DNA of 64,000 nucleotides, from contig JAKOXV010000024.1 of the NCBI GenBank assembly GCA_029780855.1, positions 43,275-107,274 on the forward strand, given 5' to 3'. The notes under the pieces were generated by a model that was not told the DNA's origin, ran no database searches, and saw only the letters and a program-made list of their open reading frames with translations. Positions 2,098-29,814 of this stretch are shown here, in pieces; the stretch's first letter is position 1, and every line of letters starts with the position of its first letter. The position numbers and the translations under genes were made by a program. This DNA comes from a bacterium (GTDB lineage Bacteria > Patescibacteriota > Saccharimonadia > Saccharimonadales > JAUPVS01).

Positions 2098-4665
2098 TTA
2101 CCTGAGATGAATGGTGGTACCGTCGTCAGAACTGGGGGATGGTACTATCTGGCTAGTTTCCTGCTTGTTGAAGGGGGAGTCAGTTGTTTTCTTTTTGCGG
2201 CGCCGAGTTCGTTTGCGCTTGGGCTTTTCCGGTACCGGGTCAATCATTACCTCAGTAGCTACCGGGGTAAGGTGCGTTTCAGGTTTTGGATCGGGCTGTT
2301 GAGATTTATCGGCTTGTGGTGGCGTTGGCTTGGGCGATTTCTTTTGATTGTTTTGAGTATTTTTTTGCACGGTATTCGCTAGCTGCTGGGGCGTAATGTA
2401 GCGGTCTTGCACATAGACCTCTACATCGGCACGTGTAATCGCGAATTGCTCACGGCTATGGGCGATTATCTCATCGCTAAAATCATCGGTCTGCTGTGGC
2501 AGATTAAGGCTGAAAGCAGAAAAAGCTGGTACTTTTTCACCATCAATCGTCATACTGATTATAAAATTGCGGTTGTGCATGTGCACTAGATCATACTCCG
2601 TAAACTTGGGCTCAAAGTAGCGAGCCATGGTGCGGGCATCGTCCGCACTGGAACGGAAGGAAATAATTGACCCGACGTTCCCAAACACCGCGTCTTTTAC
2701 CGTATCCATCATCTGTGCAATGTACTGGTTTGCAACCGTCAAGTTCAGGGCATACTTACGGGCTTCTGACAAAATCGTCGCAAATGAATCAGTCGCAAAG
2801 TTCTGGAACTCGTCCACATACAGATAGAACGGAACACGATCTTTTTCATCAATATCTGCACGGGACATTGCACCCATCTGGATTTTGGTTACCATCAATG
2901 CACCAAGCAGCGAAGCGTTATCTTCGCCAATCAGACCTCGGGACAGATTTACAATCAATATTTTCCGATCATCCATAATCTGCCGAATATTAAAGCTACT
3001 CTTGGGCTGGCCGATGATATTCCGCACAATCGGGTTAGCAGTAAAGGCGCCCACCTTGTTCAAAACTGGCGCAACAGCTTCGGTGGCGAACTTATCATTC
3101 CAGCTCGCAAACTCAACGTTCCAAAAATTTATCACTACCGGGTCAGTTACGTGCGAAACAACATCTTTACGGAAACTTTTATCGGTGAGCATTCTGGTAA
3201 TATCCAGCATGGTAGCATCGGGGTACTCAATGAGCGCCAGCAGAGTGTAGCGCAAAATGTACTCCAGCCGTGGGCCCCATGATTCAAACATGCGCTTCAA
3301 GACCCCAATAAGTTCAGATACCGTTGTGGTGCGAAGTTTAGGATCGCCAACTTCCAGAGGGTTAAACGCAATTGGGAAGTCGGTATCAGCAGGATTAAAG
3401 TAAATAACGTCTTTGGCACGTTCACGGGGTATGCGCTTTAGAATGTTGATGGCATAATCGCCGTGCGGATCGATGACCGCAAACCCGTGGGGGCTGTAGA
3501 TATCGGAGATAGTAAGTAGTTCCAGCATACCGGACTTACCGGTACCGGTCTGACCAATGATATAAAGGTGGCGTGAACGGTCCTGCCGCAACAGCCCAAA
3601 CATAGTGTTGTGCCCCCGAAAGTTAGTGACCGCAATAGGGGAGAGGTCGGCATGATATTCATTTCCTTCAACAATCGGCAATGTTGCTGGCGGCTCGGCG
3701 GTAGCGGTCGATGACCACAAGATATTTGGTGTTTCCACGCTGGTATGAGGTAGGTGATACAAACTAGCTACCTCTTCAATATTCATGGTAAAGCCCGGGC
3801 CTTTATAGCGTCGTTCGGCAAATAGCTGGATTCCATGTGGTTCAGCGGTAATGTACTTTTCAGTAAATCCGTTCAGGTAAGTAGAATTAAACTGCTTAAA
3901 ACTGGATATAATCGCCTGCACCCGCATGCGAGCTTGAGAAGGAGAAGTAACCCCCCGGTAGACCAGCCGAATTGCTGCTTCATAGGCTATTTTTTGGCTC
4001 TTTTGTTCAGCGCCACTGATCTGAGCGTTTTGATACTCACTGAGCTGTGCTGGCTTTCCATCAGATTGCTCTGGTGGCGCCCATAGAGCCCCGGCTATGC
4101 CTTTCATGCCGCTACCTTTGGCTGCTTTCATATTAGCAATGTATTTTTCTGTCTTCTTGTACCAGTTTTCTGTTGCTGGCTGAACAAGAACTTGAATCCA
4201 CGCCTCTTCGTTCATCTCAAACTTGGCTAACGTAGCGGTGATCGCAGCCAACGGGTCAACCTCAAAACTGGGAAACGTTTTGATAGGCAACACATCGTTT
4301 TTGGTAAATTTGAGTTCAGCAGTAAGTTGGGTTACGTGATCTTGCTCTGGAGGAACTACGGCGTAATCATCTATTCGTGTTATATGAACAGTAGGGTACT
4401 GGGCGTAAATCTGTTCCTCTACGAAGCTTTCCAGCTCGCGCGGAACCCAAATATAAAAACCGATCCGCTTTTGTTTAACGGCAATTTCCATACTTATTCG
4501 TTCGCGCGCCTGTTTAGAAGATCCGTAGGAAGACAGCAACAACCCATGCACGCTGGCAAACATCTGCTCGGCGGCAAGCTCTTTTTTGTCGTTCGTGCGG
4601 GGAACCTGCAAGAGAAGGGTAACACCGTCGGCGGTATGAGTTGGTGCTTTTTTAAATAGTCGCAT
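2098..4665 (-). CDS. type IV secretion coupling-protein-like ATPase (VirD4/TraG/TraD family) with K/P-rich C-terminal tail
   Basis: 855 aa. Walker A GQTGTGKSG and Walker B-like YLYVDEFQNF. Overall resemblance to T4SS DNA-binding/coupling ATPases. C-terminal ~100 aa are low-complexity (KKSPKPTPPQADK...KRKRTRRRKKK). Confidence 0.75.
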   Translation of the reverse strand: MRLFKKAPTHTADGVTLLLQVPRTNDKKELAAEQMFASVHGLLLSSYGSSKQARERISMEIAVKQKRIGFYIWVPRELESFVEEQIYAQYPTVHITRIDDYAVVPPEQDHVTQLTAELKFTKNDVLPIKTFPSFEVDPLAAITATLAKFEMNEEAWIQVLVQPATENWYKKTEKYIANMKAAKGSGMKGIAGALWAPPEQSDGKPAQLSEYQNAQISGAEQKSQKIAYEAAIRLVYRGVTSPSQARMRVQAIISSFKQFNSTYLNGFTEKYITAEPHGIQLFAERRYKGPGFTMNIEEVASLYHLPHTSVETPNILWSSTATAEPPATLPIVEGNEYHADLSPIAVTNFRGHNTMFGLLRQDRSRHLYIIGQTGTGKSGMLELLTISDIYSPHGFAVIDPHGDYAINILKRIPRERAKDVIYFNPADTDFPIAFNPLEVGDPKLRTTTVSELIGVLKRMFESWGPRLEYILRYTLLALIEYPDATMLDITRMLTDKSFRKDVVSHVTDPVVINFWNVEFASWNDKFATEAVAPVLNKVGAFTANPIVRNIIGQPKSSFNIRQIMDDRKILIVNLSRGLIGEDNASLLGALMVTKIQMGAMSRADIDEKDRVPFYLYVDEFQNFATDSFATILSEARKYALNLTVANQYIAQMMDTVKDAVFGNVGSIISFRSSADDARTMARYFEPKFTEYDLVHMHNRNFIISMTIDGEKVPAFSAFSLNLPQQTDDFSDEIIAHSREQFAITRADVEVYVQDRYITPQQLANTVQKNTQNNQKKSPKPTPPQADKSQQPDPKPETHLTPVATEVMIDPVPEKPKRKRTRRRKKKTTDSPFNKQETSQIVPSPSSDDGTTIHLR

Positions 4666-4807: not shown

Positions 4808-6046
4808 ATGATTGATGATATTGTGCCGCCGGGTCCGCCCGAGCAGCCAAATAAAAATGCGCCGCGAAGCGAAAAACCCCCAAAAACGACTGAACTACCA
4901 AAGAAAGAAGCATCGGAAAATACCGATTCTCATCCTGCAGAGTTTGCAATTTCGGGTCATAAGTACGTCAAAGATCGCCGATCGTTCCGGATTTGGCCGA
5001 GTCATCTGGCCAAGAAATGGCAGATACTTATCGGGGCGGGTATTTTTTTAGTTACCGCTGGAGTTATTGGCGGTATCCTCTGGTATCAGCACACCCACAA
5101 ACCAAAGGTCACTAAACCGGTGGTAGTAACCAAAAAAGCTCCACCGCCGGCGCCCACAACCGTAGCATCACCCCTGACAGGAGTGCAAGTTACACCAGAA
5201 TTGGCTAAACACATCGTAACCGGTGTAATGATAGAGAACAGTCCCGATGCCAGACCTCAGTCAGGCCTCAAGGATGCCGGCGTGGTTTACGAAGCTATCG
5301 CTGAGGGCGGTATAACCCGCTTTTTGGCTCTATTCCAGGAAGCAACGCCCGATTACATCGGCCCAGCTAGAAGTGCCCGGCCATACTACCTTGACTGGGT
5401 ACTGCCCTATGATGCCGGCTATGCTCATGTAGGTGGCAGCCCCGAGGCGCTCGCCCAGATCAAGCAGCTCGGAATTAAAGACATGGATCAGTTCTATAAC
5501 AGCGCCTACTACTGGCGAGTAAGTAATCGTTACGCGCCCCACAATATGTACACCAGCATAGCCAAGCTTAATGAGGGTGAAGCCAAAAAAGGCTGGACAA
5601 CAAGCAACTTTACCGGCTTCGCCCGTAAAGCAAAAGAAGAGCCGGCCGCTACTCCGACCGCCAAGAGTATTGATTTTGCCATCTCTAGTTACCTATACAA
5701 TGTGCACTATGATTATGATGCCGCCACCAATTCTTACCTTAGGAGCGAGGGCGGTAAACCACATATGGACGAAAAGTCCAACTCACAGCTTGCGCCAAAA
5801 GTGGTTATTGCGCTGGGCATGCACCACTCTATAGAGGCTGATGGTTACCACAGCGCCTACGCCACCGTAGGTTCTGGTCCGATGTTCGTGTTTCAGGATG
5901 GCGTACAGACTCAAGGCACCTGGACTAAGGCAGACAGAGGCTCTCAGTTCACCTTTACTGATGCAAACGGCAAGCCGCTAAAACTGAACCCCGGACAAAC
6001 GTGGATAACTATGGTTGAGGGCGCCAGTAGCATTACGGCGCAATAA
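4808..6046 (+). CDS. DUF3048-like secreted/membrane-anchored protein
   Basis: N-terminal TM helix followed by PLTG...ENSPDARPQSGL...VVYEAIAEGGITRFLALF, typical of the DUF3048 family. Confidence 0.75.
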   Translation: MIDDIVPPGPPEQPNKNAPRSEKPPKTTELPKKEASENTDSHPAEFAISGHKYVKDRRSFRIWPSHLAKKWQILIGAGIFLVTAGVIGGILWYQHTHKPKVTKPVVVTKKAPPPAPTTVASPLTGVQVTPELAKHIVTGVMIENSPDARPQSGLKDAGVVYEAIAEGGITRFLALFQEATPDYIGPARSARPYYLDWVLPYDAGYAHVGGSPEALAQIKQLGIKDMDQFYNSAYYWRVSNRYAPHNMYTSIAKLNEGEAKKGWTTSNFTGFARKAKEEPAATPTAKSIDFAISSYLYNVHYDYDAATNSYLRSEGGKPHMDEKSNSQLAPKVVIALGMHHSIEADGYHSAYATVGSGPMFVFQDGVQTQGTWTKADRGSQFTFTDANGKPLKLNPGQTWITMVEGASSITAQ

Positions 6047-15231: not shown

Positions 15232-16566
15232 ATGTCAAAAGTAATGCTCGTCGAAGACGATAATAACCTGCGGGAGATATATGAAGCCCGTCTGGCCGCA
15301 GAAGGATACGAAATTGTATCCGCCCATGATGGCGAAGAAGCGCTGGCTCTTGCGGTCAAGGAACGGCCTGACCTTATCATATCCGATATCATGATGCCCA
15401 AGGTTAGTGGCTTTGACATGCTCGACATTCTCCGTACCACCCCTGAGACTAAAGACACCAAAGTGATTATGATGACTGCGCTCAGCCAGGCAGAAGACAG
15501 AGCACGAGCCGATAAACTAGGAGCCGATAAATACCTCGTAAAATCACAGGTAACCCTCGAGGATGTGGTGAAGACTGCTCGAGAGGTACTTGAAGGTAGC
15601 GCAGCCCCCACAGCCGGCTCCGCACCGGCCACAGCAAATCCTACTACCGCCGCAGCGGCAGTCACGGACTCTCCTGAACCTGCAGCACCTGCAACACCAG
15701 CGCCAGCACCAGAGCCAACTCCCATGCCTGTTACGTCGCCGCCAGCCACCCCCAACCCGGCTCCGACATCAAGCCCCGCGCCAGCGCCTAGTCCTGCTCC
15801 AGCTCCTACACCGCAGCCAACGGCAATTCCCGTTTCGGAACCACCTGCAGAACCAAGCAATACACCTGTAGCTTCAGCAGCCCCCAGCTCCGGTGAACCG
15901 GCCCAAGCTAGTTACTCTGTAGCATCGTACGCGCCGCCCGCTGAACCCGCCACCCCAGCGCCTAGTCCTGCTCCAACTACTGAACCTGAACCGGCCGCGG
16001 CAGCACCAGTAGTAGTTCCGGAACCAGCACCAGAAGCCGTTGCATCCCCTGAACCTACACCAGCTCCACAAGCCTCAGATGCAGAGCAAAAAATCCAAGA
16101 TTTTATCGCCAATAACGCTACTCCCGCACCGCCCGCTGAACCCGCCACCCCAGCGCCTAGTCCTGCTCCAACTACTGAACCAGTTCCACAACCAGAGCAG
16201 ATCACACCTGAACCACAACCCAGCACACCACCAACACCTATCCCGGTAACTGATCCGGATCCTACGCCGCAACCTCCAAGCAGCGAACCAGCTCCAGAAG
16301 CAGAGACTGAGGCAGACACCGAGAATCAAACTGAGCCGGACAAGCACAAAAAAGTAATAAAACCGCTCAATGATCTCAATGCTCCGCGCGTTGATTTAAG
16401 TGAACTACTCGCCAAAGAAGAGGCCAAGCAATCAGAAGCATCTCCTGAAACACCGAGTACGCCTCCCACAACCCTACCAGGCACGCTTCCAAATCCAGAG
16501 GATGCACCAGAACCAACTCCTCCTCAGCCCGGGCAAAGCATCGATCCCAACAGTATTTCACTTTAG
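15232..16566 (+). CDS. response-regulator receiver fused to a ~320-aa Pro/Ala/Thr/Glu-rich tail
   Basis: Residues 1-120 form a canonical receiver (LVEDD, DLIISDIMMP, MMTA, KYLVKS). The remainder is a low-complexity PAPxP-type sequence with no output domain. Confidence 0.85.
   Translation: MSKVMLVEDDNNLREIYEARLAAEGYEIVSAHDGEEALALAVKERPDLIISDIMMPKVSGFDMLDILRTTPETKDTKVIMMTALSQAEDRARADKLGADKYLVKSQVTLEDVVKTAREVLEGSAAPTAGSAPATANPTTAAAAVTDSPEPAAPATPAPAPEPTPMPVTSPPATPNPAPTSSPAPAPSPAPAPTPQPTAIPVSEPPAEPSNTPVASAAPSSGEPAQASYSVASYAPPAEPATPAPSPAPTTEPEPAAAAPVVVPEPAPEAVASPEPTPAPQASDAEQKIQDFIANNATPAPPAEPATPAPSPAPTTEPVPQPEQITPEPQPSTPPTPIPVTDPDPTPQPPSSEPAPEAETEADTENQTEPDKHKKVIKPLNDLNAPRVDLSELLAKEEAKQSEASPETPSTPPTTLPGTLPNPEDAPEPTPPQPGQSIDPNSISL
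15934..16181 (+). repeat. two perfect 53-nt direct repeats inside the receiver tail (15934-15986 and 16129-16181)
   Basis: ccgcccgctgaacccgccaccccagcgcctagtcctgctccaactactgaacc occurs twice, 195 nt (65 codons) apart. A partial third copy (ccagcgcctagtcctgctcca) lies near 15781. Confidence 0.9.
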
Positions 16567-20593: not shown

Positions 20594-21844
20594 ATGCATA
20601 TAAAAAAACTGAACCAGAACGGCTTCCATCTCATATACTTACTCTTGGTTTTGGCAGTTCTTGGAGTCATTGGTTTTGCGGGTTGGCGGGTTTACACTGT
20701 ACAGCAGCAAAACAAGGCGGCCCTTGCGAATGCCGATAAAATAAACCGTGATGATCCGTTCGTGAAACAGTACGGAAGTACGTGCAGCAACGTAGCGATT
20801 AGTTCATTTCCCAAATCCCCGATCGCTGTGGATCAGATCCGCTACATAGAGCCCATGGGCAAAATGTATGACGGGCATGTGACCCCGGTAGACCACGTAT
20901 ACATCTCACCCCTAGACCCAAACGCAGCCGACAACAGTTACTCGGTTGTTATGCCTGCAGATGGGAAAGTGGTAGAAATTAGTCGGATGCCTGATAGCTA
21001 CATCGGCGATCAGACAAACAGAACCGTCGCACCTGAAGACCATCGGATTGTCGTTTCGTTCAATTGTCGCTATTACGCGATTTTTATTCACGTTCATCAG
21101 CTATCCGACAAACTGGCTGCGGCTGTAACCGGTCTGCAGGCAGGGCAGAACAAGTCAACTGACATATCACTAAAGGCCGGAGACACCATTGGTAAGATTG
21201 GGGGTAATCCAGTTGATTGGACACTCGTAGATGTCAAAACTACCCTGGCCGGATTTATACACCCAGACAGTTACGAGAGAGAACCATGGAAGGTTCACTC
21301 CATAGATCCGTTCAGCGCCTATACGGATAGTTTAAAATCCCAGCTCCAGGCCAAGAGCTTACGCTCCGCGGTGCCAATAGGGGGTAAAATTGATTATGAC
21401 AAAGCGGGGACTCTGGCCGGGAACTGGTTCCGGCAAGGTACCAATGGGTACGCCGGAACAGACCCTAGCCGCTACTGGGACGGGCATCTTTCGATCGTTC
21501 CTGACTATATCGACCCCAATACCACAGTGGTTTCAATCGGTAACTGGCAAGGCACCGCAAAACAATTTGCTGTAAAGGGAGACGCCGATCCTTCGCAAGT
21601 TACCGTCAAAAACAGTCCCGTAAAGTATGAACTTATAGAACTTGGCTACGAAACGCCAACAGCTGCACCGTGGGATGGGAAAAGCCTTATAAAGGGGCTT
21701 AAAGTGTCACAGCGCGCAACACAAGTAGGCACCATCATGTTTGAAGTCCAGTCCGATGGCACGCTGAAAGTAGAGAAGTTTCCCGGCCTGAGCGCCGACC
21801 TAGTAAGTGCCTTTGGGGCCAATGCGCAAATATACGTTCGCTAA
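20594..21844 (+). CDS. hypothetical membrane-anchored protein (possible degenerate M23/LytM-like fold)
   Basis: N-terminal TM helix. HVTPVDH ... IFIHVH ... GDTIGKIGG faintly resembles M23 HxxxD/HxH motifs. The assignment is weak. Confidence 0.6.
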   Translation: MHIKKLNQNGFHLIYLLLVLAVLGVIGFAGWRVYTVQQQNKAALANADKINRDDPFVKQYGSTCSNVAISSFPKSPIAVDQIRYIEPMGKMYDGHVTPVDHVYISPLDPNAADNSYSVVMPADGKVVEISRMPDSYIGDQTNRTVAPEDHRIVVSFNCRYYAIFIHVHQLSDKLAAAVTGLQAGQNKSTDISLKAGDTIGKIGGNPVDWTLVDVKTTLAGFIHPDSYEREPWKVHSIDPFSAYTDSLKSQLQAKSLRSAVPIGGKIDYDKAGTLAGNWFRQGTNGYAGTDPSRYWDGHLSIVPDYIDPNTTVVSIGNWQGTAKQFAVKGDADPSQVTVKNSPVKYELIELGYETPTAAPWDGKSLIKGLKVSQRATQVGTIMFEVQSDGTLKVEKFPGLSADLVSAFGANAQIYVR

Positions 21845-22050
21845 AACAGTGGCTCGGCGCTGTCAGCAGAAAAGTCTAGTGCCTTCGCTGCATCCTGAGC
21901 TTGTGTAAGTAACTGCTTTCGCATTTCTGCAGCAGCATGGTCAGTACCTTCTACGGCTACTAATTGGGAGATTATGTTTCCATAGGAAACAGCCGCCGGT
22001 TGATCCAGCACAATACTGGTATAGAAGGGATCGTATTCAATATGTCTCAT
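21841..22050 (-). CDS. small hypothetical protein (69 aa)
   Basis: ATG 22050 follows AAAGAAAGG. Only this C-terminal part of the 166-aa track ORF looks coding; the rest overlaps two terminator hairpins. Confidence 0.5.
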   Translation of the reverse strand: MRHIEYDPFYTSIVLDQPAAVSYGNIISQLVAVEGTDHAAAEMRKQLLTQAQDAAKALDFSADSAEPLF

Positions 22051-22175
22051 AGTATGTAACCTTTCTTTAGAATACTGTGTACGGGTAGTAGGTCTCAAAA
22101 AAAGGACCTCCAGAGAGCAAAAGAGTCCGGTGGACTCTTTTGTAGGCAAGAGCGAAGCGTCACTCGTTTTAGTTT

Positions 22176-22516
22176 CAAAAAAAGGACCTCCAGAGGGGGT
22201 GGGCACCGCTGGAGGTCCTATTATTGGGCTCGATAAATCGAGCCCACCACACCCTTCAACCCACCCCAGTGAAGCGTCGATGTCCAAAACTCTTAAAGAC
22301 TCGCGCATCCACCCATGAAGGGCAGAGTACTGGATACTCACTTTGATATCGGGAAGTTAAAGGGGTTAGTATGCTTTAGAGCGCTTACAGTCATAGAATG
22401 ACCAAAACGCTAGAATAAGTGGAGGGTAACAACTTATACAGCACGCTCTAAAACACTCTAACAAATTGTTAGAATTTGGGGGTATAAGGTACGTAAACGT
22501 AATATTACGCTTACGG
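22176..22516 (-). ncRNA. candidate ~340-nt structured RNA of unknown class
   Basis: - strand promoter TTGACA (22550-22545), 16-nt spacer, TAAAAT (22528-22523). Terminator AGGACCTCCAG/CTGGAGGTCCT (22183-22193 / 22209-22219) plus U7. Internal helices include UUUAGAGCG/CGCUCUAAA. No credible ORF. Confidence 0.45.
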
Positions 22517-22643: not shown

Positions 22644-23501
22644 ATGAAAGTTCGCACCCTAACCGCCAAATCTGGCACCATGCCGGCTCGCTTGTTACAG
22701 GTGAGCCCTCCTCCCAGCAAACTGTTTGTCCTGGGCGACACACTAGAATCGTTACTCAAAAAGCCGTGTTTGGCTGTTGTTGGTAGCAGAGCTGTCAGCC
22801 CTTATGGTCGACTGGTAACAACCGAGCTTGTGGAAGCAGCGGCCCGAGCGGGCGTTACCATCATAAGCGGTCTAGCACTTGGGGTGGACGGCCTAGCACA
22901 CTATGCCGCCTTGAACGCTCACGGGGGCACTATAGCAGTACTGCCGTCGCATGTGACAGAAGTGTATCCCGCCTCACACCGGCAGTTGGCTCAGCAGATA
23001 CTCCAAAATGGTGGGGTATTGGTGTCGGAATATCCTCCCGGGACGAATGCCCGCCGAGAGAATTTCATCGAGCGGAACAGATTAGTATCAGGTTTAGCAG
23101 ATGCCGTACTTATTACAGAAGCAGCCGAAAAGAGCGGCACGCTCCATACCGCCCGCTTTGCATTAGAGCAGGGAAGAGATGTCTTGGTAGTACCCGGGAA
23201 TATCAACAGCCCAAATAGCAAGGGGACGAATACCCTCCTAAAGGCAGGTGCCGAACCCATAACGTGTCCAGAGGACATACTCGGGCACTTTAACATCCAC
23301 GAAACAACAGAACAGATGGAGCTCATTGGTAATAATGCTGAGGAGCAGGTTATTTTGGATCTACTACGGCAAGGTGTAACCGATGCTAGTGAACTCCATG
23401 CCCTCAGCAAGCTCGCTACCCATACGTTTAATCAGACCCTTACCATGCTAGAAATCTCTGGCAGGATTAAACCATCTGCTGGTAACTGGTATCTGTTATA
23501 G
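22644..23501 (+). CDS. dprA: DNA-processing protein DprA
   Basis: LAVVGSRAVSPYG...IISGLALGVDG.AH...GGTIAVL matches the DprA Rossmann-like domain. A C-terminal winged-helix-like tail is present. Confidence 0.9.
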   Translation: MKVRTLTAKSGTMPARLLQVSPPPSKLFVLGDTLESLLKKPCLAVVGSRAVSPYGRLVTTELVEAAARAGVTIISGLALGVDGLAHYAALNAHGGTIAVLPSHVTEVYPASHRQLAQQILQNGGVLVSEYPPGTNARRENFIERNRLVSGLADAVLITEAAEKSGTLHTARFALEQGRDVLVVPGNINSPNSKGTNTLLKAGAEPITCPEDILGHFNIHETTEQMELIGNNAEEQVILDLLRQGVTDASELHALSKLATHTFNQTLTMLEISGRIKPSAGNWYLL

Positions 23502-23503
23502 TC

Positions 23504-23532
23504 TTGTATAATTATCGATAATATGCTATAAT
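23504..23532 (+). promoter_or_regulatory. candidate promoter of GC-rich cassette A
   Basis: TTGTAT (23504-23509), 17-nt spacer, TATAAT (23527-23532). Followed by the palindrome AGCAAATTGCT. Confidence 0.5.
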
Positions 23533-23580
23533 TAGCTAGTTTTAGCAAATTGCTGGAACGCACCTGAACAAGGAGTAGAT

Positions 23581-24006
23581 ATGTACAAGCGGTATGTGAT
23601 CGCCGCCCTGGTGTTCTTTGCGCTCATCATGGTTGGGGCCGGCTTCGTCGCCAACAACGACCCGTTTGACACGGGAAGCCCGTGGATGAACTGGCTGACC
23701 CTGAGCGTTGGTGGTTTCATCGGCGTGTTCATCGCCCTGATGACCTTCATCGGCTCTTGGGAGTCGAAGGGAATCTCCGATGAAGGCGAACGTTGGGTGG
23801 TCTTCTGTGTCAGCGTGGTTGGAACGGCGTTCTTCGGAGCCATGATCGTGGGGATCATCCTGGATGGCGCCTCAGATACGTCAGCCCATCTCGGATGGAC
23901 GACCTACGGTGTCTCCCTGATCCTCATGAACGTGGCCTACCTGGTCATGTACCTGATGCCGGAGCCCAAGTCCGCCGATGCCCTCAGCCTGCACCGAGCC
24001 GCGTAG
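23581..24006 (+). CDS. small 4-TM membrane protein (GC-rich cassette A)
   Basis: 141 aa. AAGGAG lies 5 nt before the ATG. Strong GC3 bias (a 60-nt line scored 37/60 GC vs 24/60 in topA). Four hydrophobic helices. No family recognised. Confidence 0.75.
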   Translation: MYKRYVIAALVFFALIMVGAGFVANNDPFDTGSPWMNWLTLSVGGFIGVFIALMTFIGSWESKGISDEGERWVVFCVSVVGTAFFGAMIVGIILDGASDTSAHLGWTTYGVSLILMNVAYLVMYLMPEPKSADALSLHRAA

Positions 24007-24018
24007 GACCATGTCGCC

Positions 24019-24069
24019 GGAGCCGGGGAAATCTTTCTAACGTCGATGACGTTATGAAACCCCGGCTCC
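24019..24069 (+). other. compound GC-rich hairpin after cassette A ORF
   Basis: Outer stem GGAGCCGGGG/CCCCGGCTCC (10 bp) encloses an inner hairpin AACGTC-gat-GACGTT. No U-run follows. Confidence 0.7.
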
Positions 24070-24092
24070 CACCTTTCTCCTTGTTCAATTTT

Positions 24093-24143
24093 CGCTTCCA
24101 TAACTGTGTAGTTATGCTGATGAGTCCAAAAGGACGAAAAGCG
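24093..24143 (+). ncRNA. hammerhead ribozyme, type III topology (copy 1)
   Basis: CGCUU-C17 | CAUAACU-GUGU-AGUUAUG | CUGAUGA | GUCC-AAAA-GGAC | GAA | A-AGCG. All invariant core positions are present. Stem III is 5 bp, stem I 7 bp, stem II 4 bp. Predicted cleavage falls between 24098 and 24099. Confidence 0.9.
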
Positions 24144-24151
24144 TAAGAATA

Positions 24152-24180
24152 TTGACTTATTTACAATTTTAGTATAAAAT
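24152..24180 (+). promoter_or_regulatory. near-consensus sigma70-type promoter inside the hammerhead-bounded unit
   Basis: TTGACT (24152-24157), 17-nt spacer, TAAAAT (24175-24180). It begins 9 nt after ribozyme copy 1. Confidence 0.6.
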
Positions 24181-24444
24181 ACTGTAGTCACAACCAGTGA
24201 CACATCAAGAAGCAGAACCTTTACACCACATACCCAACCAGAAAGGAGCCTTTGGCTCTCTAGTAGTACCAAGGTAAAACCGCACAAATTATACTCTCGG
24301 ATAATTTGCACGGACCACTTGCTTTCCATAGGTGCCGTAGCGGCGCACATGGAAGAAGCAGATGTGAAGAGGAGTGGATACGAATCTTCACCTGCTACAT
24401 GCTACACCTGGCAATACCCCATTGGCCGAGAGGAGAAGATCCCG

Positions 24445-24642
24445 ATGGGTAAGCGGTACACTCTACGTTGCGGATCCCCGCGACCCCAGTTCCGTAACTG
24501 GGAGATCGTGTGGGAGATGCACGGCACCGTCCACTTCTGCACCGTGCAGCTCTCCGTCCGCATTACCGAACCGGAGCTGGTGCGCGCTGCTGCAGACGTG
24601 CCTGACGAGGCCGAGGCCTACATCGTGCCCTTGCTGGCATAG
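24445..24642 (+). CDS. small hypothetical protein, 65 aa (GC-rich cassette B)
   Basis: GAGAGGAGAAG lies upstream of ATG 24445. The frame gives a plausible sequence (MGKRYTLRCGSPRPQFRNWEIVWEMHGTVHFCTVQLSVRITEPELVRAAADVPDEAEAYIVPLLA). The alternative 141-aa frame is R/S/P/C-rich junk. Confidence 0.55.
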   Translation: MGKRYTLRCGSPRPQFRNWEIVWEMHGTVHFCTVQLSVRITEPELVRAAADVPDEAEAYIVPLLA

Positions 24643-24805
24643 ATCAAGCCTACGTGCGAGAGAGAAACGAGTACGGAAACTCGTAAAAAATCCTGTAATA
24701 CTTCGGGGAAGTTCCGGAGCGCCTCCGTTTCAGTGTGTTCGTGCACGATTCGGCCAAAGCGGTCAACTATACCTTTCTCTCTATTCTTCTGCTTCTTGAT
24801 ACACA

Positions 24806-24856
24806 CGCTTCCATAACTGTGTAGTTATGCTGATGAGTCCAAAAGGACGAAAAGCG
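24806..24856 (+). ncRNA. hammerhead ribozyme, type III topology (copy 2, identical to copy 1)
   Basis: Same 51 nt as 24093-24143. Predicted cleavage falls between 24811 and 24812. Confidence 0.9.
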
Positions 24857-24860
24857 TATA

Positions 24861-25046
24861 ATGAAAACTGAAATGGAAACAAAACATCTCATATATATAA
24901 TGGTGGCAATATTTTCTACTCTTGGTGGATGGCTCGGTGGCATCATGGACCACGGTAATTTCTTGGGGATGTGGAGTATATTGCTGGCTGGTATAGGCGG
25001 TTTTGTAGGCGTATACGTAGGCTACAAGATCGGTAACAATACCTAA
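24861..25046 (+). CDS. small Gly-rich membrane protein (GlsB/YeaQ/YmgE-like?)
   Basis: 61 aa, two TM helices with GGWLGG and GIGGFVG motifs. Native low GC. ATG 24873 is an alternative start. Confidence 0.6.
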   Translation: MKTEMETKHLIYIMVAIFSTLGGWLGGIMDHGNFLGMWSILLAGIGGFVGVYVGYKIGNNT

Positions 25047-25129
25047 ACTGCAGTTTGCTTTTATACACAACTTGCCGTAAGCTCTTAGTTTGTTACTAAA
25101 ATAAGTACGGTATACTACCCATTACGCAT

Positions 25130-27421
25130 ATGGCAAAAAATCTCGTTATTGTTGAAAGCCCCGCTAAAGCCAAGACTATAGAAAAGTACTTAGGCAAAGA
25201 CTACGTTGTTAAAAGCAGCTTTGGTCATATTCGTGATTTACCCAAAAAGGGAATTAGTATTGCTATCGATAAGGGGTTTGAACCGACCTATGAAGTTAGC
25301 AGTGATAAGAAAAAAGTTGTAGCCGAACTTAAGAAGCTTGCTAAAACAGCCGAAAACGTCTGGCTAGCAAGTGACGAAGACCGCGAAGGAGAGGCAATTG
25401 CCTGGCATTTATGCAAGGCGCTCGGATTAGATGATAAAACGACTAAGCGCATTGTCTTCCATGAGATAACCAAACCAGCCATTTTGAGCGCCATAGAGCA
25501 GCCTAGAACAGTAGATAAAGACCTCGTTGATGCCCAACAGGCTCGCCGTGTTCTAGACCGTTTAGTCGGCTATGAGCTTTCACCGGTACTTTGGAAAAAA
25601 GTACGGACTGGTTTGAGCGCTGGCCGCGTACAATCCGTCGCAGTACGATTGATTGTGGAACGTGAACGAGAAATAAAGGATTTTAACCCTGAAGTTAGTT
25701 ACAAGGTAACGGGGCTATTTGACGCCAAAGGCACCGAACTCCCCGCTGAACTACCGAATAAGCTCGCCGATGAAGTAGCCGCGACGGCATTCTTAGAAGA
25801 CTGCAAACATGCAACATTTAGCGTCTCAGCAATTGAAGCAAAGCCAGGCACCCGCAACCCTAGTGCTCCATTCACTACCAGCAGTCTCCAGCAAGAAGCC
25901 GCCCGCAAGCTTGGCTATTCCGTACGCCAAACTATGACCCTGGCACAGCGGCTGTATGAAAATGGACACATTACCTATATGCGTACCGACAGTACCAACC
26001 TAGCCGGTCAGGCGATTGCCGCCGCCGAAGCCTATATCCAGAAAAACTTCGGTAAGGAGTACCATCAGGTTCGCCAGTATAAAACCAAAGCTGCCGGTGC
26101 ACAGGAAGCGCACGAAGCGATTCGCCCAACCGACTTTGCAGTAACGAGCGCAGGATCAGATGCGCAGCAGAAAAAGCTCTATGAACTCATCTGGAAGCGA
26201 ACGCTTGCGAGCCAGATGGCTCCCGCTAAAATCGAACGGACAGAGGTGAGCATTTCACTATCAAACCGGACCGAAACATTGCTCGCAAAAGGGGAAGTTT
26301 TAACGTTCGACGGCTTCATTAAGGTGTACGGAGGCGGCAAAGACGACACTATCCTACCGCCAATGGGACAAGGCCAGGATCTGCCGCTTGTAAGCATGAA
26401 GGCTACCCAATCATTCAGTAAACCAGCAGCCCGGTATTCTGAGGCAAGCTTGGTGAAGAAGCTAGAAGACTTAGGTATCGGCCGCCCAAGTACCTACGCG
26501 CCGACCATCAGCACCATTCAAACCCGCGGGTACGTCGAGAAAAGTGATCTGGAGGGAACCGAGCGTACCGTTCGAGAACTTACACTTATGAAGGGAAGCA
26601 TCACCACCTCTGATAGAACAGAGGTGACCGGTGCCGACAAAAACAAACTGCTACCAACCCACATCGCTGAGATGACAACCGATTTCTTGGTTAAGCATTT
26701 TGCGTCGATTGTCGATTACGATTTCACCGCAAAGGCCGAAAAAGGGTTCGACGATATCGCCGATGGCAAAGAGAAGTGGAACACCATGATCGCCGATTTT
26801 TATAAAGATTTTCATCCCCTTATTGATAAAGCAGCAGATGTTTCCCGCGAGGAGACTTCACAGGCAAGGGAGCTCGGAAAAGACCCTAAAAGCGGTAAGC
26901 CGGTGATAGCCCGTTATGGCCGATACGGCGCCATGCTACAGATTGGTGAAGCAGAAGACGAGGAAAAGCCTCGATTTGCGCCATTGCCAGATGGAGCGAC
27001 CCTAGAAACGGTCACCTATGACCAAGCCATGGAAATGTTCAAACTACCCCGCACGGTAGGAAAAACCGAAGACGGAGAAGACATTAAGGCAAACGTGGGA
27101 CGGTTTGGTCCCTACATTCAGGTCGGTAAATTGTTTGTATCAATAAAAGGTCAGGATCCACTCACTATTACCGAAGCAGAGGCGCGCCAAGCTTACGGCG
27201 AAAAGCTCAAAAAAGACGCCGATAAGTACATAGCTGAATTTGATAGTGGCATAAAGATTGTAAATGGCCCCTATGGACCGTACATCACAAACGGCAAAAA
27301 GAATGCCCGTATCCCTAAAGAAACCGATCCAAAAAAACTTTCAGAGGCCGAGTGCAAGGAAATACTCGACAAAGCTCCGGATAAAAAAAGACGCTTTACT
27401 CGTCGCAAAAAAACCAGCTAG
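25130..27421 (+). CDS. topA: DNA topoisomerase I
   Basis: 763 aa. TOPRIM start LVIVESPAKAKTIEKYLG, active-site region ITYMRTDS, and a lysine-rich C-terminal tail. Confidence 0.96.
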   Translation: MAKNLVIVESPAKAKTIEKYLGKDYVVKSSFGHIRDLPKKGISIAIDKGFEPTYEVSSDKKKVVAELKKLAKTAENVWLASDEDREGEAIAWHLCKALGLDDKTTKRIVFHEITKPAILSAIEQPRTVDKDLVDAQQARRVLDRLVGYELSPVLWKKVRTGLSAGRVQSVAVRLIVEREREIKDFNPEVSYKVTGLFDAKGTELPAELPNKLADEVAATAFLEDCKHATFSVSAIEAKPGTRNPSAPFTTSSLQQEAARKLGYSVRQTMTLAQRLYENGHITYMRTDSTNLAGQAIAAAEAYIQKNFGKEYHQVRQYKTKAAGAQEAHEAIRPTDFAVTSAGSDAQQKKLYELIWKRTLASQMAPAKIERTEVSISLSNRTETLLAKGEVLTFDGFIKVYGGGKDDTILPPMGQGQDLPLVSMKATQSFSKPAARYSEASLVKKLEDLGIGRPSTYAPTISTIQTRGYVEKSDLEGTERTVRELTLMKGSITTSDRTEVTGADKNKLLPTHIAEMTTDFLVKHFASIVDYDFTAKAEKGFDDIADGKEKWNTMIADFYKDFHPLIDKAADVSREETSQARELGKDPKSGKPVIARYGRYGAMLQIGEAEDEEKPRFAPLPDGATLETVTYDQAMEMFKLPRTVGKTEDGEDIKANVGRFGPYIQVGKLFVSIKGQDPLTITEAEARQAYGEKLKKDADKYIAEFDSGIKIVNGPYGPYITNGKKNARIPKETDPKKLSEAECKEILDKAPDKKRRFTRRKKTS

Positions 27422-27525
27422 CTCTCAAGCTTGTAAAATCATTCTACTCATGGCATAGTACAGATCTAGAGGAAAACCCTCTAGTGTACGCCATTACGTA
27501 CACGTTCGTACCTTAAGGGGGCAAA

Positions 27526-27936
27526 ATGGCGGAGCTGCAACAGAGCACCGAGGCACGGTTGAGCGAACTGATGTACCATCCGGATTCCCGGATACATAAT
27601 TGGGAAGACGAGGTCATGATGCTCGTGTACCGCCTGCTTGGTGAACATCAGCAGGCTACCTGGCGCGAGGCCGAACGGCACTACATGAACTGGTGGGCCA
27701 GCGCTCGGCATATCGACAAGAAGGATCTACAGCGCAGCATCGATTCTCTTCCGGGACTGTCGGTGCACATCAAAGCCGCTCTCCGTCGTGCACACATCAC
27801 CACCATCGGGATGCTTCTGTATCTGACAGATGAAGAGCTGCTGCAGGTCAAGAACATCGGTGAAGCACGCCTCAAGATCATCAATGAGGCTCTCAAGAAG
27901 ACCCGGCTGGCTCGCTACAAGCGGTCCGCACGATGA
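27526..27936 (+). CDS. small protein with RNA-polymerase alpha-CTD-like helix-hairpin-helix domain (GC-rich cassette C)
   Basis: 136 aa with GC3-rich codons. LSVHIKAALRRAHITTIGMLLYLTDEELLQVKNIGEARLKIINEALKK resembles the alpha-CTD consensus (LSVRAxNCLKxAxIxTIGDLxxxTEEELLxIxNFGxKSLxEI). Confidence 0.65.
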   Translation: MAELQQSTEARLSELMYHPDSRIHNWEDEVMMLVYRLLGEHQQATWREAERHYMNWWASARHIDKKDLQRSIDSLPGLSVHIKAALRRAHITTIGMLLYLTDEELLQVKNIGEARLKIINEALKKTRLARYKRSAR

Positions 27937-27949
27937 ATCACCTACCCAT

Positions 27950-27999
27950 GGCCGGAGGGGCAAAACTACTCGAGGCGACACTGTCGCACCCCTCCGGCC
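27950..27999 (+). other. compound GC-rich hairpin after cassette C ORF
   Basis: Outer stem GGCCGGAGGGG/CCCCTCCGGCC (11 bp) encloses an inner hairpin GCGAC-act-GTCGC. This is the same two-level design as 24019-24069 but with unrelated sequence. Confidence 0.7.
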
Positions 28000-28067
28000 C
28001 ACCCCTTAAGGTACACGTTTCAACCTCTCTATTGACTTTTATTATAGATTTCTGGATAATATGTTGC

Positions 28068-28550
28068 ACGTCAAGCAATTGAAGTACCTACTTATTCGTA
28101 ATGATCTAGCAGAGGCACGATGAGGCTATCAACGCCACGTTGGTGTAAACCAGCACAATCGTCGCGTCTCGCATTCCGTGGGAAAAGGAGTGATCCCCAT
28201 TCGGGTAGATCGCCGCTTTCAGCTCAGGCTGTCAGTCCAAGTAGCGAAGCCCTTCAAAAGGCTGCCGCCACCACGGAATGTTCTCCTGCTCGAGTAGGTT
28301 AATGGAGTTGCCCGCTCCAAGCCGACTCGCAGGAACGCGTAGACGACCCATGCTGTCGTCCGCGCTTAGGATGTCCTGGCTCGCGCCAAGTACGCTACCC
28401 GCCAGCCGAAAGGCCGAGCCAGGGCATCCACCACACACTTCAAATTACGACGCGCGAGTTCAGTGCAAGAGAAACTGGTAGTAGCACCAAGGCTTACCCC
28501 TATGGTAGCTCCCAACACTCTTCCACATCTACGAACTCGCTTTTTTCTTT
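28068..28550 (+). ncRNA. candidate ~480-nt GC-rich structured RNA of unknown class
   Basis: Promoter TTGACT (28032-28037) plus TGgATAATA (28053-28061). Helices are 28172-28181/28271-28280 (10 bp), 28369-28383/28415-28429 (15 bp with one U-G that would be A-C on the other strand) and 28342-28347/28355-28360. Closing stem 28454-28461/28533-28540 is followed by T6. No credible ORF on either strand. Confidence 0.5.
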
Positions 28551-28678
28551 ATAGAGGGTATCCTTTGGTTTATCCCCAACTTGCTATCTGTTAAGAGATA
28601 TTTTGTTGTAATGTTGTTATGCTTTATGTGAGCACATAAGTCTATTTCGTGATAAAATAAGTTCATAAAACACTAAGT

Positions 28679-28707
28679 TTGACTTTTAAAAATTAAAGTT
28701 ATATAAT
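28679..28707 (+). promoter_or_regulatory. consensus sigma70-type promoter of the sigma-like gene
   Basis: TTGACT (28679-28684), 17-nt spacer, TATAAT (28702-28707). The 5' UTR contains hairpin AGGGGTA-gggcgt-TACCCCT. Confidence 0.65.
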
Positions 28708-28782
28708 TATACTATTACAGCAGGGAGGGGTAGGGCGTTACCCCTGTTATTACAGAGTATAAGAAAAGGAATAATCATAAAG

Positions 28783-29814
28783 ATGGCAGAGCAGTCCACC
28801 AAAAAAATCGATATTGAAGCCGTTGTTCAAGACGTCCTTGGCGTTATCGAACGGGAACGAGAGCGAGAAATTGTTTCGCGCCGTTTTGGATTGTTTGACC
28901 GCAAAGAAACGTTAGAGCAAATAGGGGAGCTGCTTGGTATAACCCGTGAACGTGTTCGTCAGCTCGAAAAGGCCGTAGTCACTCGTCTCAAGTCTGCTTC
29001 AAAAGATCTGCCACACATGACTGAAATCGAAAATGCCTTTGTAGCCGAACTTGAAGGCATGGGCAATGCCGCTCGGATTAGTGATCTCAGCGCTAAACTT
29101 ACTGAAAAAAACGAACGTACCGACCAAGCCCGCGTTTCATTCTTAGCCGAACTATCCCCTAAACTGGCGGTAATTGATGAGAACGATCATTTCTACCACG
29201 CAGTTGGAATAGCAAAACTACACAACGAAAAACAGATGAAGGATCGCGTTGCTAAAATAATTGACGCCATAAAGACTATTGGAGAACCTACTGGCATTGA
29301 TGCAGTTGCCACGGCCGTTAAAGATAGCGATAAAAGTCATGTAGAAGCACTTGCTAGCACCAGCAAGGCACTCGCAAGTCTGCACGGTCGCTGGGGACTA
29401 GTGAAGTGGCCTATGGTCAACCCTAAAAATATTCGGGACAAAATTTATGTTATTTTGTTTGAAAAGGGCAAACCGATGCACTTCAACGAAATCGCTGGAG
29501 AAATCAAGAAATCAAGCTTTAAGCGCAAGGATGTGACCACCCAGGCAATCCATAACGAACTCATCAAAGATAGCCGTTTCGTACTCATCGGCCGCGGTAT
29601 TTATGCGTTGAAAGAGTGGGGATACAGCAAGGGAACCGTAGCCGATATCATCACCGATGTACTTAAGAAGGCCGGTGAACCCCTGCACCGAGACGAAATC
29701 GTCAAACGCGTCCTCAAAAGTCGCCAGGTAAAAGAAACCACCATTCTGCTTAATCTACAGGGTAAGAGCCAGTTCAAGCGCGTTGCCAAAGCTACCTACA
29801 CGCTCGCAAACTAA
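28783..29814 (+). CDS. sigma-70 region-4-like HTH protein with C-terminal HARE-HTH-like domain
   Basis: N-terminal REREIVSRRFGL...TLEQIGELLGITRERVRQLEKAV is a region-4 signature. The C-terminal PMHFNEIAGEI...FVLIGRGIYALKEWGY resembles a delta-subunit/HARE-type winged helix. Confidence 0.75.
   Translation: MAEQSTKKIDIEAVVQDVLGVIEREREREIVSRRFGLFDRKETLEQIGELLGITRERVRQLEKAVVTRLKSASKDLPHMTEIENAFVAELEGMGNAARISDLSAKLTEKNERTDQARVSFLAELSPKLAVIDENDHFYHAVGIAKLHNEKQMKDRVAKIIDAIKTIGEPTGIDAVATAVKDSDKSHVEALASTSKALASLHGRWGLVKWPMVNPKNIRDKIYVILFEKGKPMHFNEIAGEIKKSSFKRKDVTTQAIHNELIKDSRFVLIGRGIYALKEWGYSKGTVADIITDVLKKAGEPLHRDEIVKRVLKSRQVKETTILLNLQGKSQFKRVAKATYTLAN

Follow-up and report, generated by a model that had tools for sequence, protein, structure and literature searches.

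How can DNA of foreign appearance come to lie on both sides of an essential gene in a bacterium with a reduced genome? The question is raised by a 64-kb stretch of a metagenome-assembled contig (JAKOXV010000024.1; hereafter the window), in which the spacers on either side of topA, between dprA and topA and between topA and a sigma-like gene, hold GC-rich blocks. The Saccharibacteria-like host suspected in the initial annotation of this DNA was confirmed by TopA, whose best relatives (at most 72% identity) belong to Saccharibacteria metagenome-assembled genomes (MAGs). Saccharibacteria live as ultra-small epibionts, their genomes are reduced, and little is known of the ways in which they acquire and regulate accessory genes. 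On balance, we lean towards the reading that the two topA-flanking spacers are permissive hot spots, at which four accessory transcription units, acquired or exchanged from an unsampled mobile gene pool, are RNA-insulated by a ribozyme. These would be three small protein genes (P1, P2 and P3, in cassettes 1 to 3) and one structured non-coding RNA (RNA4), neither vertically inherited nor copied from host genes, and our best reading describes them most closely as moron-like accessory cassettes at two insertion hot spots with ribozyme insulation.

The composition of the window was profiled in sliding windows of 300 nucleotides (nt), for an overall GC content of 47.9% (standard deviation of the profile 0.050, 95th percentile 0.567). 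The GC-rich blocks already named in the initial annotation all fall in the top 5% (23551-24100, peak 0.60; 24301-24750, 0.59; 27501-28000, 0.58; 28101-28500, 0.59) and are bounded by stretches of 36-38% GC (38% at 24100-24299, 36% at 28000-28100). Its two spot counts were exact (37/60 GC at 23641-23700 and 24/60 at 25141-25200), and the strong bias in GC at third codon positions (GC3) that it attributed to the cargo open reading frames (ORFs) is evident (Table 1) against the 55 native ORFs of the window (mean 0.478, standard deviation 0.052, maximum 0.573), topA having a native-like GC3. The blocks are not alone in being GC-rich, since positions 1-1950 of the window also reach 62-67% GC. The GC excess of the cargo is essentially a third-position effect, because the content of glycine, alanine, arginine and proline (GARP; 0.24-0.31 in the cargo proteins against a native 0.248±0.036), the amino-acid composition in general and GC at the first and second codon positions (GC1, GC2) are all close to native values, and this holds even for ORF 826-1944 of that island (GC3 0.92). 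High GC3 without a high-GC amino-acid signature should therefore not be taken as a matter of course for import from a high-GC host.

The comparison with relatives places these blocks in an evolutionary setting. The gene order dprA-topA-sigma-like is kept in about 57 fetched Saccharibacteria loci, in which dprA and topA are 28 to 3194 nt apart, and topA and the sigma-like gene 111 to 4348 nt. Empty sites had been proposed as a check on insertion, and many relatives indeed possess them, as short AT-rich spacers of 28-166 nt and 111-275 nt, respectively (for example lineages L004, L008, L011, L014, L016, L025, L120 and L181); among the 198 loci fetched, not one encodes a relative of P1, P2 or P3. 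GC-rich inserts occur in one or other spacer of at least 13 further lineages (best 200-nt window at least 0.65 GC, in genomes of 0.47-0.54 GC). These inserts, which are non-homologous between lineages, contain 18 further ORFs with a codon-like GC3 of 0.71-0.87, and a Pfam domain was found in none of the ten GC3-rich ones tested. In the relative L003, the region that follows dprA can be aligned to the cassette-1 promoter and to some 25 nt at the start of the leader, while the ORFs downstream are unrelated, which points to different cargo between conserved flanks; the promoter of cassette 1 is TATAAT-type, as initially described, and is not merely host-type but orthologous to the promoter and leader of L003. 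As the same two spacers hold different structured GC-rich inserts in each lineage, a recurrent process is indicated rather than a single event. The small membrane protein P61, upstream of topA, is on the other hand native and outside the foreign cargo, given its GC3 and its homologues in five lineages. As a separate observation, the only part of the topA-sigma-like spacer that is conserved at the DNA level, in about 30 loci, is the last 100-200 nt before the sigma-like gene (28640-28726 in the window), with the TTGACT-17-TATAAT site at 28679-28707; the inserts all lie upstream of it.

A horizontal or mobile origin is thus supported by composition, by empty sites and by non-homologous replacement at the same sites. 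It could instead be supposed that the units are native, fast-evolving or newly arisen genes and RNAs, whose GC3 and folding were shaped in place for compact, nuclease-resistant transcripts with no transfer at all. Such an origin would agree with a GC excess confined to synonymous positions and native-like amino-acid usage, with the unusual degree of structure in all units and in the inserts of relatives, with cargo that has no homologues elsewhere, and with the orthology of the cassette-1 promoter and leader to those of L003. We nevertheless hold it to be doubtful, because relatives at 67-72% TopA identity have empty sites or wholly unrelated inserts, which argues for gain and replacement rather than divergence; moreover, distant relatives of P2 do exist elsewhere, P3 bears an old, recognisable domain, and synonymous shuffles reveal no position-specific structure in the ORFs.

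The search for a donor was extensive. P1 and P3 are singletons among 5.8 billion proteins in a protein word-index search, and P2 has nine distant relatives and no close homologue. At 90% clustering, P1, P3 and TopA are singletons known from a single NCBI contig and a single SRA run. No cargo match was obtained by tblastn and blastn against phages and plasmids, by scans of viral contigs with P1, P3, the P2 family and an ORF of the 1-1950 island, or in PHROGs, PADLOC and NCBIfam, apart from the C-terminal domain of the RNA polymerase alpha subunit (alpha-CTD) in P3. A weak phage match of P2 was dismissed as chance since it lies on the opposite strand of an annotated gene. We conclude that the source of the cargo is an unsampled mobile pool, or else rapid gene turnover in this phylum.

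The initial annotation had suggested Actinobacteria or their phages as donors. Saccharibacteria grow on Actinobacteria and are naturally competent (PMC10633639), so that chromosomal DNA of a high-GC host or phage might have been imported directly and integrated at random, and the GC3 of 0.69-0.92 in the cassettes and in the 1-1950 island would agree with this, as would the codon-like periodicity with an in-frame TGA on the minus strand of RNA4, as a piece of a GC-rich gene might show. Most bacterial genes taken at random would match some domain, and a Pfam domain was detected in just one (P3) of the 13 hot-spot ORFs tested. The unmatched protein, phage, plasmid and viral searches likewise tell against such an import, and so do the native-like GARP content, GC1 and GC2; nor would random fragments be expected to carry a promoter, a closing helix and a ribozyme in fixed order. 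Import from Actinobacteria is accordingly unlikely in our view, and the proposed donor was not borne out.

The element that best distinguishes these units is RNA. The statement that the locus lacks any signature of mobility holds for integrases, transposases and tRNA genes, none of which occurs within about 8 kb of the cassettes, and the neighbouring genes (for the Der GTPase, peptidyl-tRNA hydrolase, DprA, TopA and the sigma-like protein) offer no prophage or phage setting; what had been overlooked is a pair of identical hammerhead motifs, the sole flanking direct repeat, around cassette 2. A permissive Rfam scan of 23300-28900 returned two Hammerhead_3 matches (RF00008, clan CL00010; 20.9 bits each), both of which fall in a direct repeat of 53 nt (24093-24145 and 24806-24858; the two copies are 100% identical), whose spacing of 713 nt is also the length of the unit from cleavage site to cleavage site (24099-24811). 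Parsed by hand and with a structural matcher, each motif reads CGCUUC/CAUAAC-UGUGUA-GUUAUG-CUGAUGA-GUCC-AAAA-GGAC-GAAA-AGCG (the slash marks the predicted cleavage site). The catalytic core CUGAUGA...GAAA is complete in both copies, and the predicted cut follows a UC dinucleotide; the three stems (I, II, III) comprise 6-7, 4 and 5-6 bp, the open helix III defines type III, and the pairs A15.1-U16.1, G10.1-C11.1 and C1.1-G2.1 are all formed next to the core, without a mispair there. Two instances of the core pattern were counted in the window, where 0.03 would be expected, and the matcher identified 49 such motifs in 1.35 Mb of fetched loci against two in five shuffles of the same data. We therefore regard the motifs, from their sequence, as putative self-cleaving type III hammerhead ribozymes.

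Three of the closest relatives have one hammerhead each, located in L003 and L050 at the 3' end of their own, different dprA-topA cassettes and in L005 at the 3' end of an 840-nt topA-sigma-like insert. Across the four lineages, stems I and III differ in sequence yet stay paired, as judged from a parse of each sequence, since MAFFT did not align the 5' strands of the four hammerheads correctly. None of the relatives' hammerheads was detected at the Rfam gathering level in 24 relatives' loci. The same subclass (stem II GUCC-AAAA-GGAC, loop I UGUGUA) is present in 36 IMG/VR viral contigs, often in 2-3 copies 0.3-2 kb apart, an arrangement reported for prophages by Perreault et al. (PMC3088659). 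Two identical copies here, set against the diverged hammerheads of relatives, suggest gene conversion, a duplication of recent date, or insertion at the ribozyme by a single crossover. The literature searched contains no report that connects hammerhead ribozymes with Saccharibacteria or with the candidate phyla radiation at large; to that extent the present motifs would be the first examples, and they are found next to an essential gene and not inside a prophage.

A pair of 100% identical hammerheads in direct orientation, 713 nt apart, also raises the idea of an RNA-borne mobile element, whose unit would be excised as an RNA with 5'-OH and 2',3'-cyclic-phosphate ends, circularised and copied back to DNA in the manner of retrozymes or viroid- or Obelisk-like RNAs, or would have entered the chromosome in circular form through one crossover at the hammerhead. 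The closing helix described below, which reaches within 6 nt of both termini of the cleaved unit, is compatible with this proposition, as are the divergence of the relatives' hammerheads in every stem, by which the identity seen here denotes a recent duplication, and the extremely structured insert of L005 that ends in a hammerhead. Against it, the predicted circular fold of 24099-24811 is multi-branched and not rod-like (18 hairpin loops, 62% paired); no reverse transcriptase, long terminal repeat (LTR), primer-binding site or target-site duplication was seen (primer-binding sites and polypurine tracts were not the object of a dedicated search); L003, L050 and L005 have a single hammerhead each; and a promoter lies just inside the unit, so that most transcripts would be devoid of the 5' ribozyme. 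Circular products of tandem bacterial hammerheads also went undetected in the work of Perreault et al. (PMC3088659). An RNA-borne element is improbable on this evidence.

The hammerheads belong to a broader RNA architecture. The 35 nt upstream of the motif are 74-80% pyrimidine in four of the five Saccharibacteria copies (0.77 for the cassette-1 copy), against 0.46±0.06 for viral hammerheads (n = 44), which are preceded by a plain hairpin, and only 1.8% of random 35-mers of the window reach 0.70. In the three protein cassettes the pyrimidine-rich tail pairs with the 5' leader in a closing helix of 11 contiguous bp in cassette 1 (pair probability 0.88-1.0 in the minimum-free-energy fold), 14 bp in cassette 2 and 13 bp in cassette 3 (Table 1); the pair probability of the closing helix is ~1.0 in cassettes 1-3, L050 and L003. 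The Shine-Dalgarno region is covered in cassettes 1 and 3 and in L003, L050 and L012. For the longest contiguous flank-to-flank helix, L003, L012 and L010 reach 11, 14 and 10 bp, and native genes (n = 54) 6-9 bp. Whole units fold with z values of -4.2, -6.0 and -3.9 (cassettes 1-3) and -7.3 (RNA4), native genes ranging from -1.9 to +1.2, and the plus strand folds better than the minus strand every time (-7.3 against -3.2 in RNA4). Inserts of relatives have z values of -2.1 to -11.3, seven of 11 being at or below -4, whereas their topA controls lie between -1.7 and +0.3. Taken together, the hammerheads, pyrimidine-rich tails and closing helices imply that the blocks are a class of structured cassette and not anonymous DNA.

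Some individual inserts of relatives may be recorded here. The most extreme fold found (z -11.3 on the plus strand) belongs to the insert of L122 (4000-4800), around a 146-aa ORF of GC3 0.81, and matches no Rfam family. In L017, at 70% TopA identity, a GC-rich, repeat-bearing spacer of ~310 nt (5650-5960) separates the P61 homologue from topA and has no hammerhead. The topA-sigma-like spacer of L005 (8335-9230) houses the 840-nt GC-rich insert mentioned above, with z values of -8.1 (plus) and -9.9 (minus); a closing helix joins its 5' and 3' ends, the latter carries a hammerhead, none of its ORFs has a GC periodicity that is clearly codon-like, and its position corresponds to that of RNA4.

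RNA4 itself is predicted to adopt a closed multi-branch fold followed by a long terminal hairpin and a U-run; its 5'-3' closing helix is shorter (7+4 bp), and it is devoid of the anti-Shine-Dalgarno design. It contains no long ORF. A coding role was rejected, since the sole codon-periodic frame, on the minus strand, is interrupted by an in-frame TGA (28232-28234) and its translation has no Pfam match. That frame (28090-28452; GC 0.70 at position 3, 0.62 at position 1 and 0.40 at position 2) may be the remnant of a GC-rich gene, although the plus strand folds far better. At the gathering level, Rfam recognises a tRNA-Glu alone in the window and nothing in 24 relatives' loci, and the permissive scan of 23300-28900 added to the two hammerheads just two chance snoRNA matches. 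With no Rfam match, RNA4 is not RNase P RNA, tmRNA, 6S RNA, GOLLD, ROOL, OLE or HEARO.

Composition, synteny with its empty sites, ribozyme motifs and predicted helices were computed; from them we infer self-cleavage in vivo, a role in insulation and stability, and an origin in the mobile pool. Each unit would be transcribed from its own promoter. All three protein cassettes have a common predicted design, in which an AT-rich sigma-70-type promoter (weak in cassette 3) is followed by a GC-rich body and by a 3' tail, rich in pyrimidines, whose partner is the 5' untranslated region; the finished RNA would close on itself and, in cassettes 1 and 3, the closing helix would hide the ribosome-binding site. 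The 3' end would be set by the hammerhead in cassettes 1 and 2, by a hairpin in cassette 3 and by a terminator-like hairpin in RNA4. We propose that the hammerhead cut, directly 3' of the tail, detaches the cassette RNA from cassette 2 or from the P61-topA message and leaves a 2',3'-cyclic-phosphate end beside the closing helix, which could yield a compact, long-lived RNA. Translation would be throttled and mainly possible before the 3' tail is transcribed, and insertion would thus leave the expression of topA undisturbed.

The hiding of the Shine-Dalgarno region brings to mind type I toxin-antitoxin systems, and addiction modules of that kind, with a stable mRNA kept inert by 5'-3' pairing as in the hok/sok fold-back, would persist without benefit to the host. 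As in hok/sok mRNAs, a 3' tail is predicted to pair with the translation-initiation region of a small gene that sometimes encodes a membrane protein (P1 and the cargo of L050 are such proteins), the pairing recurs in cassettes 1 and 3, L003, L050 and L012, and a weak minus-strand promoter-like site (24193-24166) is directed into hammerhead 1 and the 3' end of cassette 1. In contrast to hok/sok, the proteins are larger or soluble, and the 3' end would be made by a predicted ribozyme instead of exonucleolytic trimming. P1, with 141 aa and four hydrophobic segments, is far above the size of type I toxins (<60 aa), P2 and P3 are soluble and not hydrophobic, defence and toxin models gave no match, and no antisense RNA was identified beyond the one weak promoter-like site. 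Addiction modules are hence quite improbable here. Antisense transcription is possible; on the same strand as that promoter-like site, the leader of cassette 2 contains a terminator-like hairpin (24280-24313) with a 13-bp stem and a T-run.

The contiguity of the locus was examined with contigs that a different assembler had produced from the same sequencing run and that are 100% identical to the window (Table 1). The initial annotation had asked for assembly chimerism to be excluded. Three junctions recur in the second assembly (dprA with cassette 1; hammerhead 2 with P61-topA and cassette 3; RNA4 with the sigma-like gene), and none of its contigs was found to cover the inside of cassette 2. 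That the arrangement stems from chimerism in the MAG contig, or from a loop mis-resolved at the 53-nt repeat so that cassette 2 was misplaced, is in our estimation very unlikely. The metagenomic source, the missing record of the cassette-2 interior, the breaks of the second assembly 30 nt into each repeat and a further break at 27922-27935, between P3 and RNA4, would be in keeping with such an artefact. The breaks at 24122 and 24829 are those expected of a k=31 graph. Against an artefact, the three junctions are unbroken and 100% identical in the second assembly; along single contigs, the blocks alternate with native genes and AT-rich promoters; independent assemblies of relatives hold the same kind of insert at the same sites; and the sequence directly upstream of the hammerheads differs between cassettes 1 and 2, as for two real copies. 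Chimerism of the other junctions is unlikely. Two of the second-assembler contigs (L002 and L200) overlap by 14 nt at the P3 stop codon (27922-27935), a break that no repeat explains and that could reflect strain variation at the junction of cassette 3 and RNA4.

Several results weigh against the acquisition of ribozyme-insulated cassettes from a mobile pool. No donor or homologue is available for any cargo, so that horizontal origin rests on composition and phyletic pattern. The GC excess is almost confined to third codon positions, with native-like amino-acid usage that is unlike a fresh import from a high-GC genome and that in-situ selection could explain. Synonymous-codon shuffles of the cargo ORFs (z -1.4, -1.5 and -0.6, in a native range of -3.9 to +1.6) disclosed no extra structure in the ORF bodies, and specific pairing inside the ORFs consequently does not explain GC3; selection for overall RNA stability is possible, as this test keeps GC3 fixed. 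The Hammerhead_3 matches, at 20.9 bits, are below the gathering score of 48.5 and align at model positions 9-47 alone, and a hammerhead is present in just four of about 57 syntenic lineages, which means that it is not general to hot-spot inserts. The generic RNA-duplex energy of the flanks did not separate the cassettes from native genes, and for this reason the longest-helix statistic was adopted. Host-type promoters had been claimed, and a promoter scan did recover those at 24152-24180, 28032-28060 and 28679-28707 with 10-11 of 12 matches; as a class, promoter-like sites are not enriched over shuffles (12 found against 9.4±3.6) and they are therefore counted solely as consensus matches. The cassette-3 promoter is weak. 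Finally, the cassette-2 interior (24146-24805), between the two identical repeats, was not found in the second assembly, and exact look-ups of three alternative ORFs inside it found nothing, so that the placement of cassette 2 relies on the MAG contig.

With regard to the cargo proteins, the labels initially given to the four units, a protein with four membrane-spanning segments, a 65-aa protein, a protein with an alpha-CTD-like domain and a structured RNA, are in agreement with the hydrophobic segments of P1, the homologues of P2, the domain match of P3 and the fold of RNA4. A full HMMER scan of 1.8 billion representatives with a 97-aa query of P2 produced ten matches: seven are proteins of 63-66 aa, six of which match residues 35-96 of the query, two longer ones (113 and 170 aa) include this module, and the last (623 aa) seems to be an artefact of repeats. 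The AlphaFold model built from the alignment of this family is confident (pLDDT 86.9) and has a beta-beta-alpha-beta fold, and P2 is a real small protein. None of its structural neighbours is significant; the best, at a TM-score of ~0.5, are the phage Dmd antitoxin and small uncharacterised phage proteins, which serve as a lead only. P3 matches PF03118, the RNA polymerase alpha-CTD, over residues 64-124 (39.6 bits against a cut-off of 23.8) and the Bacillus subtilis alpha-CTD structure 3ihq_B (E 2e-4). Its N-terminal 60 residues are uncharacterised; as the alpha N-terminal domain is absent, P3 is a stand-alone domain protein and not RpoA. A single-sequence AlphaFold model of P3 was discarded as unusable (pLDDT 48.6).

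Table 1. Features of the cassettes around topA and contigs of the second assembly, in window positions; z refers to the GC3 of the 55 native ORFs.
Feature	Position (strand)	GC3 (z)	Description
Cassette-1 promoter-like site	23504..23532 (+)		TTGTAT-N17-TATAAT with TGn extension; directly 3' of dprA stop; read from the sequence, below scan threshold
Cassette-1 closing helix, 5' arm	23565..23575 (+)		Covers Shine-Dalgarno AAGGAG; pairs with 24077-24087
P1	23581..24006 (+)	0.810 (6.4)	141 aa; four hydrophobic segments, read from the sequence; no homologues
Cassette-1 3' hairpin	24019..24069 (+)		GC-rich; predicted fold
Cassette-1 pyrimidine-rich tail	24071..24092 (+)		Holds closing-helix 3' arm 24077-24087, CTCCTTGTTCA
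Hammerhead motif 1	24093..24145 (+)		Type III; predicted cleavage between C24098 and C24099
Cassette-2 promoter-like site	24152..24180 (+)		TTGACT-17-TAAAAT; scan
Cassette-2 closing helix, 5' arm	24204..24217 (+)		14 bp; perfect complement to 24787-24800 (inverted repeat)
P2	24445..24642 (+)	0.788 (6.0)	65 aa; rare family of ~65-aa proteins; version backed by homologues
Cassette-2 pyrimidine-rich tail	24771..24805 (+)		Holds closing-helix 3' arm 24787-24800
Hammerhead motif 2	24806..24858 (+)		100% identical to motif 1; predicted cleavage between C24811 and C24812
P61	24861..25046 (+)	0.45	Small membrane protein upstream of topA; homologues in L017, L121, L123, L124, L129
Cassette-3 closing helix, 5' arm	27508..27520 (+)		GTACCTTAAGGGG; overlaps ribosome-binding site; pairs with 28002-28014
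P3	27526..27936 (+)	0.693 (4.2)	136 aa; alpha-CTD-like helix-hairpin-helix domain, residues 64-124; no homologues
Cassette-3 3' region	27937..28031 (+)		Hairpin, then pyrimidine-rich tail with 3' arm 28002-28014; no ribozyme
RNA4 promoter-like site	28032..28060 (+)		TTGACT-17-GATAAT; scan
RNA4	28068..28552 (+)		GC-rich non-coding RNA, ~470-485 nt
Contig L001	16152-24122		dprA and cassette 1
Contig L002	24829-27935		P61, topA and cassette 3
Contig L200	27922-32814		RNA4 and sigma-like gene

The cassettes may be set beside several known systems. They resemble phage morons and small genomic islets at integration hot spots as putatively autonomous units, with consensus promoter matches and predicted 3'-end signals (ribozyme, hairpin or terminator), between conserved genes, with deviant composition and patchy presence; they differ from morons in that there is no phage context and no identifiable donor and that the GC excess is restricted to third positions. 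To our knowledge, a shared RNA architecture such as this has not been described for morons. RiboJ is an engineered hammerhead insulator that fixes the 5' end of the downstream RNA whatever lies upstream, and here too a hammerhead is placed between transcription units; unlike RiboJ, the present motifs are natural, stand at cassette 3' ends and are coupled to a closing helix. In prophages, which offer the nearest known parallel, hammerheads flank single genes of varying identity, and their proposed role is to cut long transcripts into single-gene RNAs (Perreault et al. 2011, PMC3088659). Type III hammerheads in direct orientation around one small gene that varies between genomes are common to those cassettes and ours, which are in contrast flanked by the housekeeping genes dprA and topA with no prophage or integrase nearby, and which occur in a Saccharibacterium, at phylum-wide hot spots with GC3-rich cargo that lacks homologues. 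The pyrimidine-rich tail that pairs with the 5' untranslated region is a further difference from viral hammerheads and their plain upstream hairpin. With retrozymes, viroid-like RNAs and Obelisks (PMC7761336; bioRxiv 10.1101/2024.01.20.576352), cassette 2 has in common a ~0.7-kb unit, two hammerheads, helix-joined ends, a small ORF and a bacterium of microbiome type. Unlike Obelisk and viroid-like RNAs, it is DNA-encoded on a chromosomal contig and has a branched fold; unlike retrozymes, its repeats are 53 nt long and are the ribozyme itself, and no LTR or primer-binding site was seen, although primer-binding sites and polypurine tracts were not searched for specifically.

Hot spots, cargo without homologues, enrichment confined to GC3, strong folding, closing helices and the occasional ribozyme together point to a dedicated way of hosting or exchanging small genes, a recurring pattern for which every genome of the phylum can be screened. 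A natural ribozyme insulator design of this kind would permit insertions beside topA without disturbing its expression. A bolder proposition, to which we give little credence, is that Saccharibacteria carry an undescribed class of hyper-variable mini-cassettes, with fixed intergenic hot spots, lineage-specific GC3-rich sequence that lacks homologues, and a closed, highly structured RNA, hammerhead-capped in one clade and exchanged by way of the ribozyme and tail module. The mobile form would in that equally tentative case be the ribozyme-excised RNA, possibly circular as the 713-nt unit, or the hammerhead DNA would act as a recombination site comparable to integron attC.

Other features of the window were noted in passing. 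The conserved neighbour of topA, the sigma-like protein (28783-29814; 343 aa), has a Sigma70 region 4 (residues 25-70) and no sigma region 2, and also carries a HARE-HTH/RNA polymerase delta-like domain (residues 222-279). The second and larger GC-rich island, at 1-1950, extends past the left edge of the window and contains two minus-strand ORFs, 59-820 (GC3 0.80) and 826-1944, both of native-like amino-acid composition and of no confident family (a weak GmrSD_N/ParB-like match has an E of 0.058); it adjoins a VirD4/TraG-type coupling ATPase of type IV secretion (2098-4665, minus strand) of native composition. The GC-rich stretch at 15451-16250, which forms the end of a response-regulator ORF (15232-16566), is not foreign-looking, as its GC1 of 0.69, GC2 of 0.58 and GC3 of 0.40 denote amino-acid bias and not synonymous bias. 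Between a 416-aa gene and dprA, the minus-strand ORF 21841-22341 (166 aa) has no Pfam match and folds far more stably than its own synonymous shuffles (z -3.9); nested direct and inverted repeats (CAAAAAAAGGACCTCCAGAGG) lie inside it at 22092-22226, and instead of a gene this may be a repeat element or a structured RNA.

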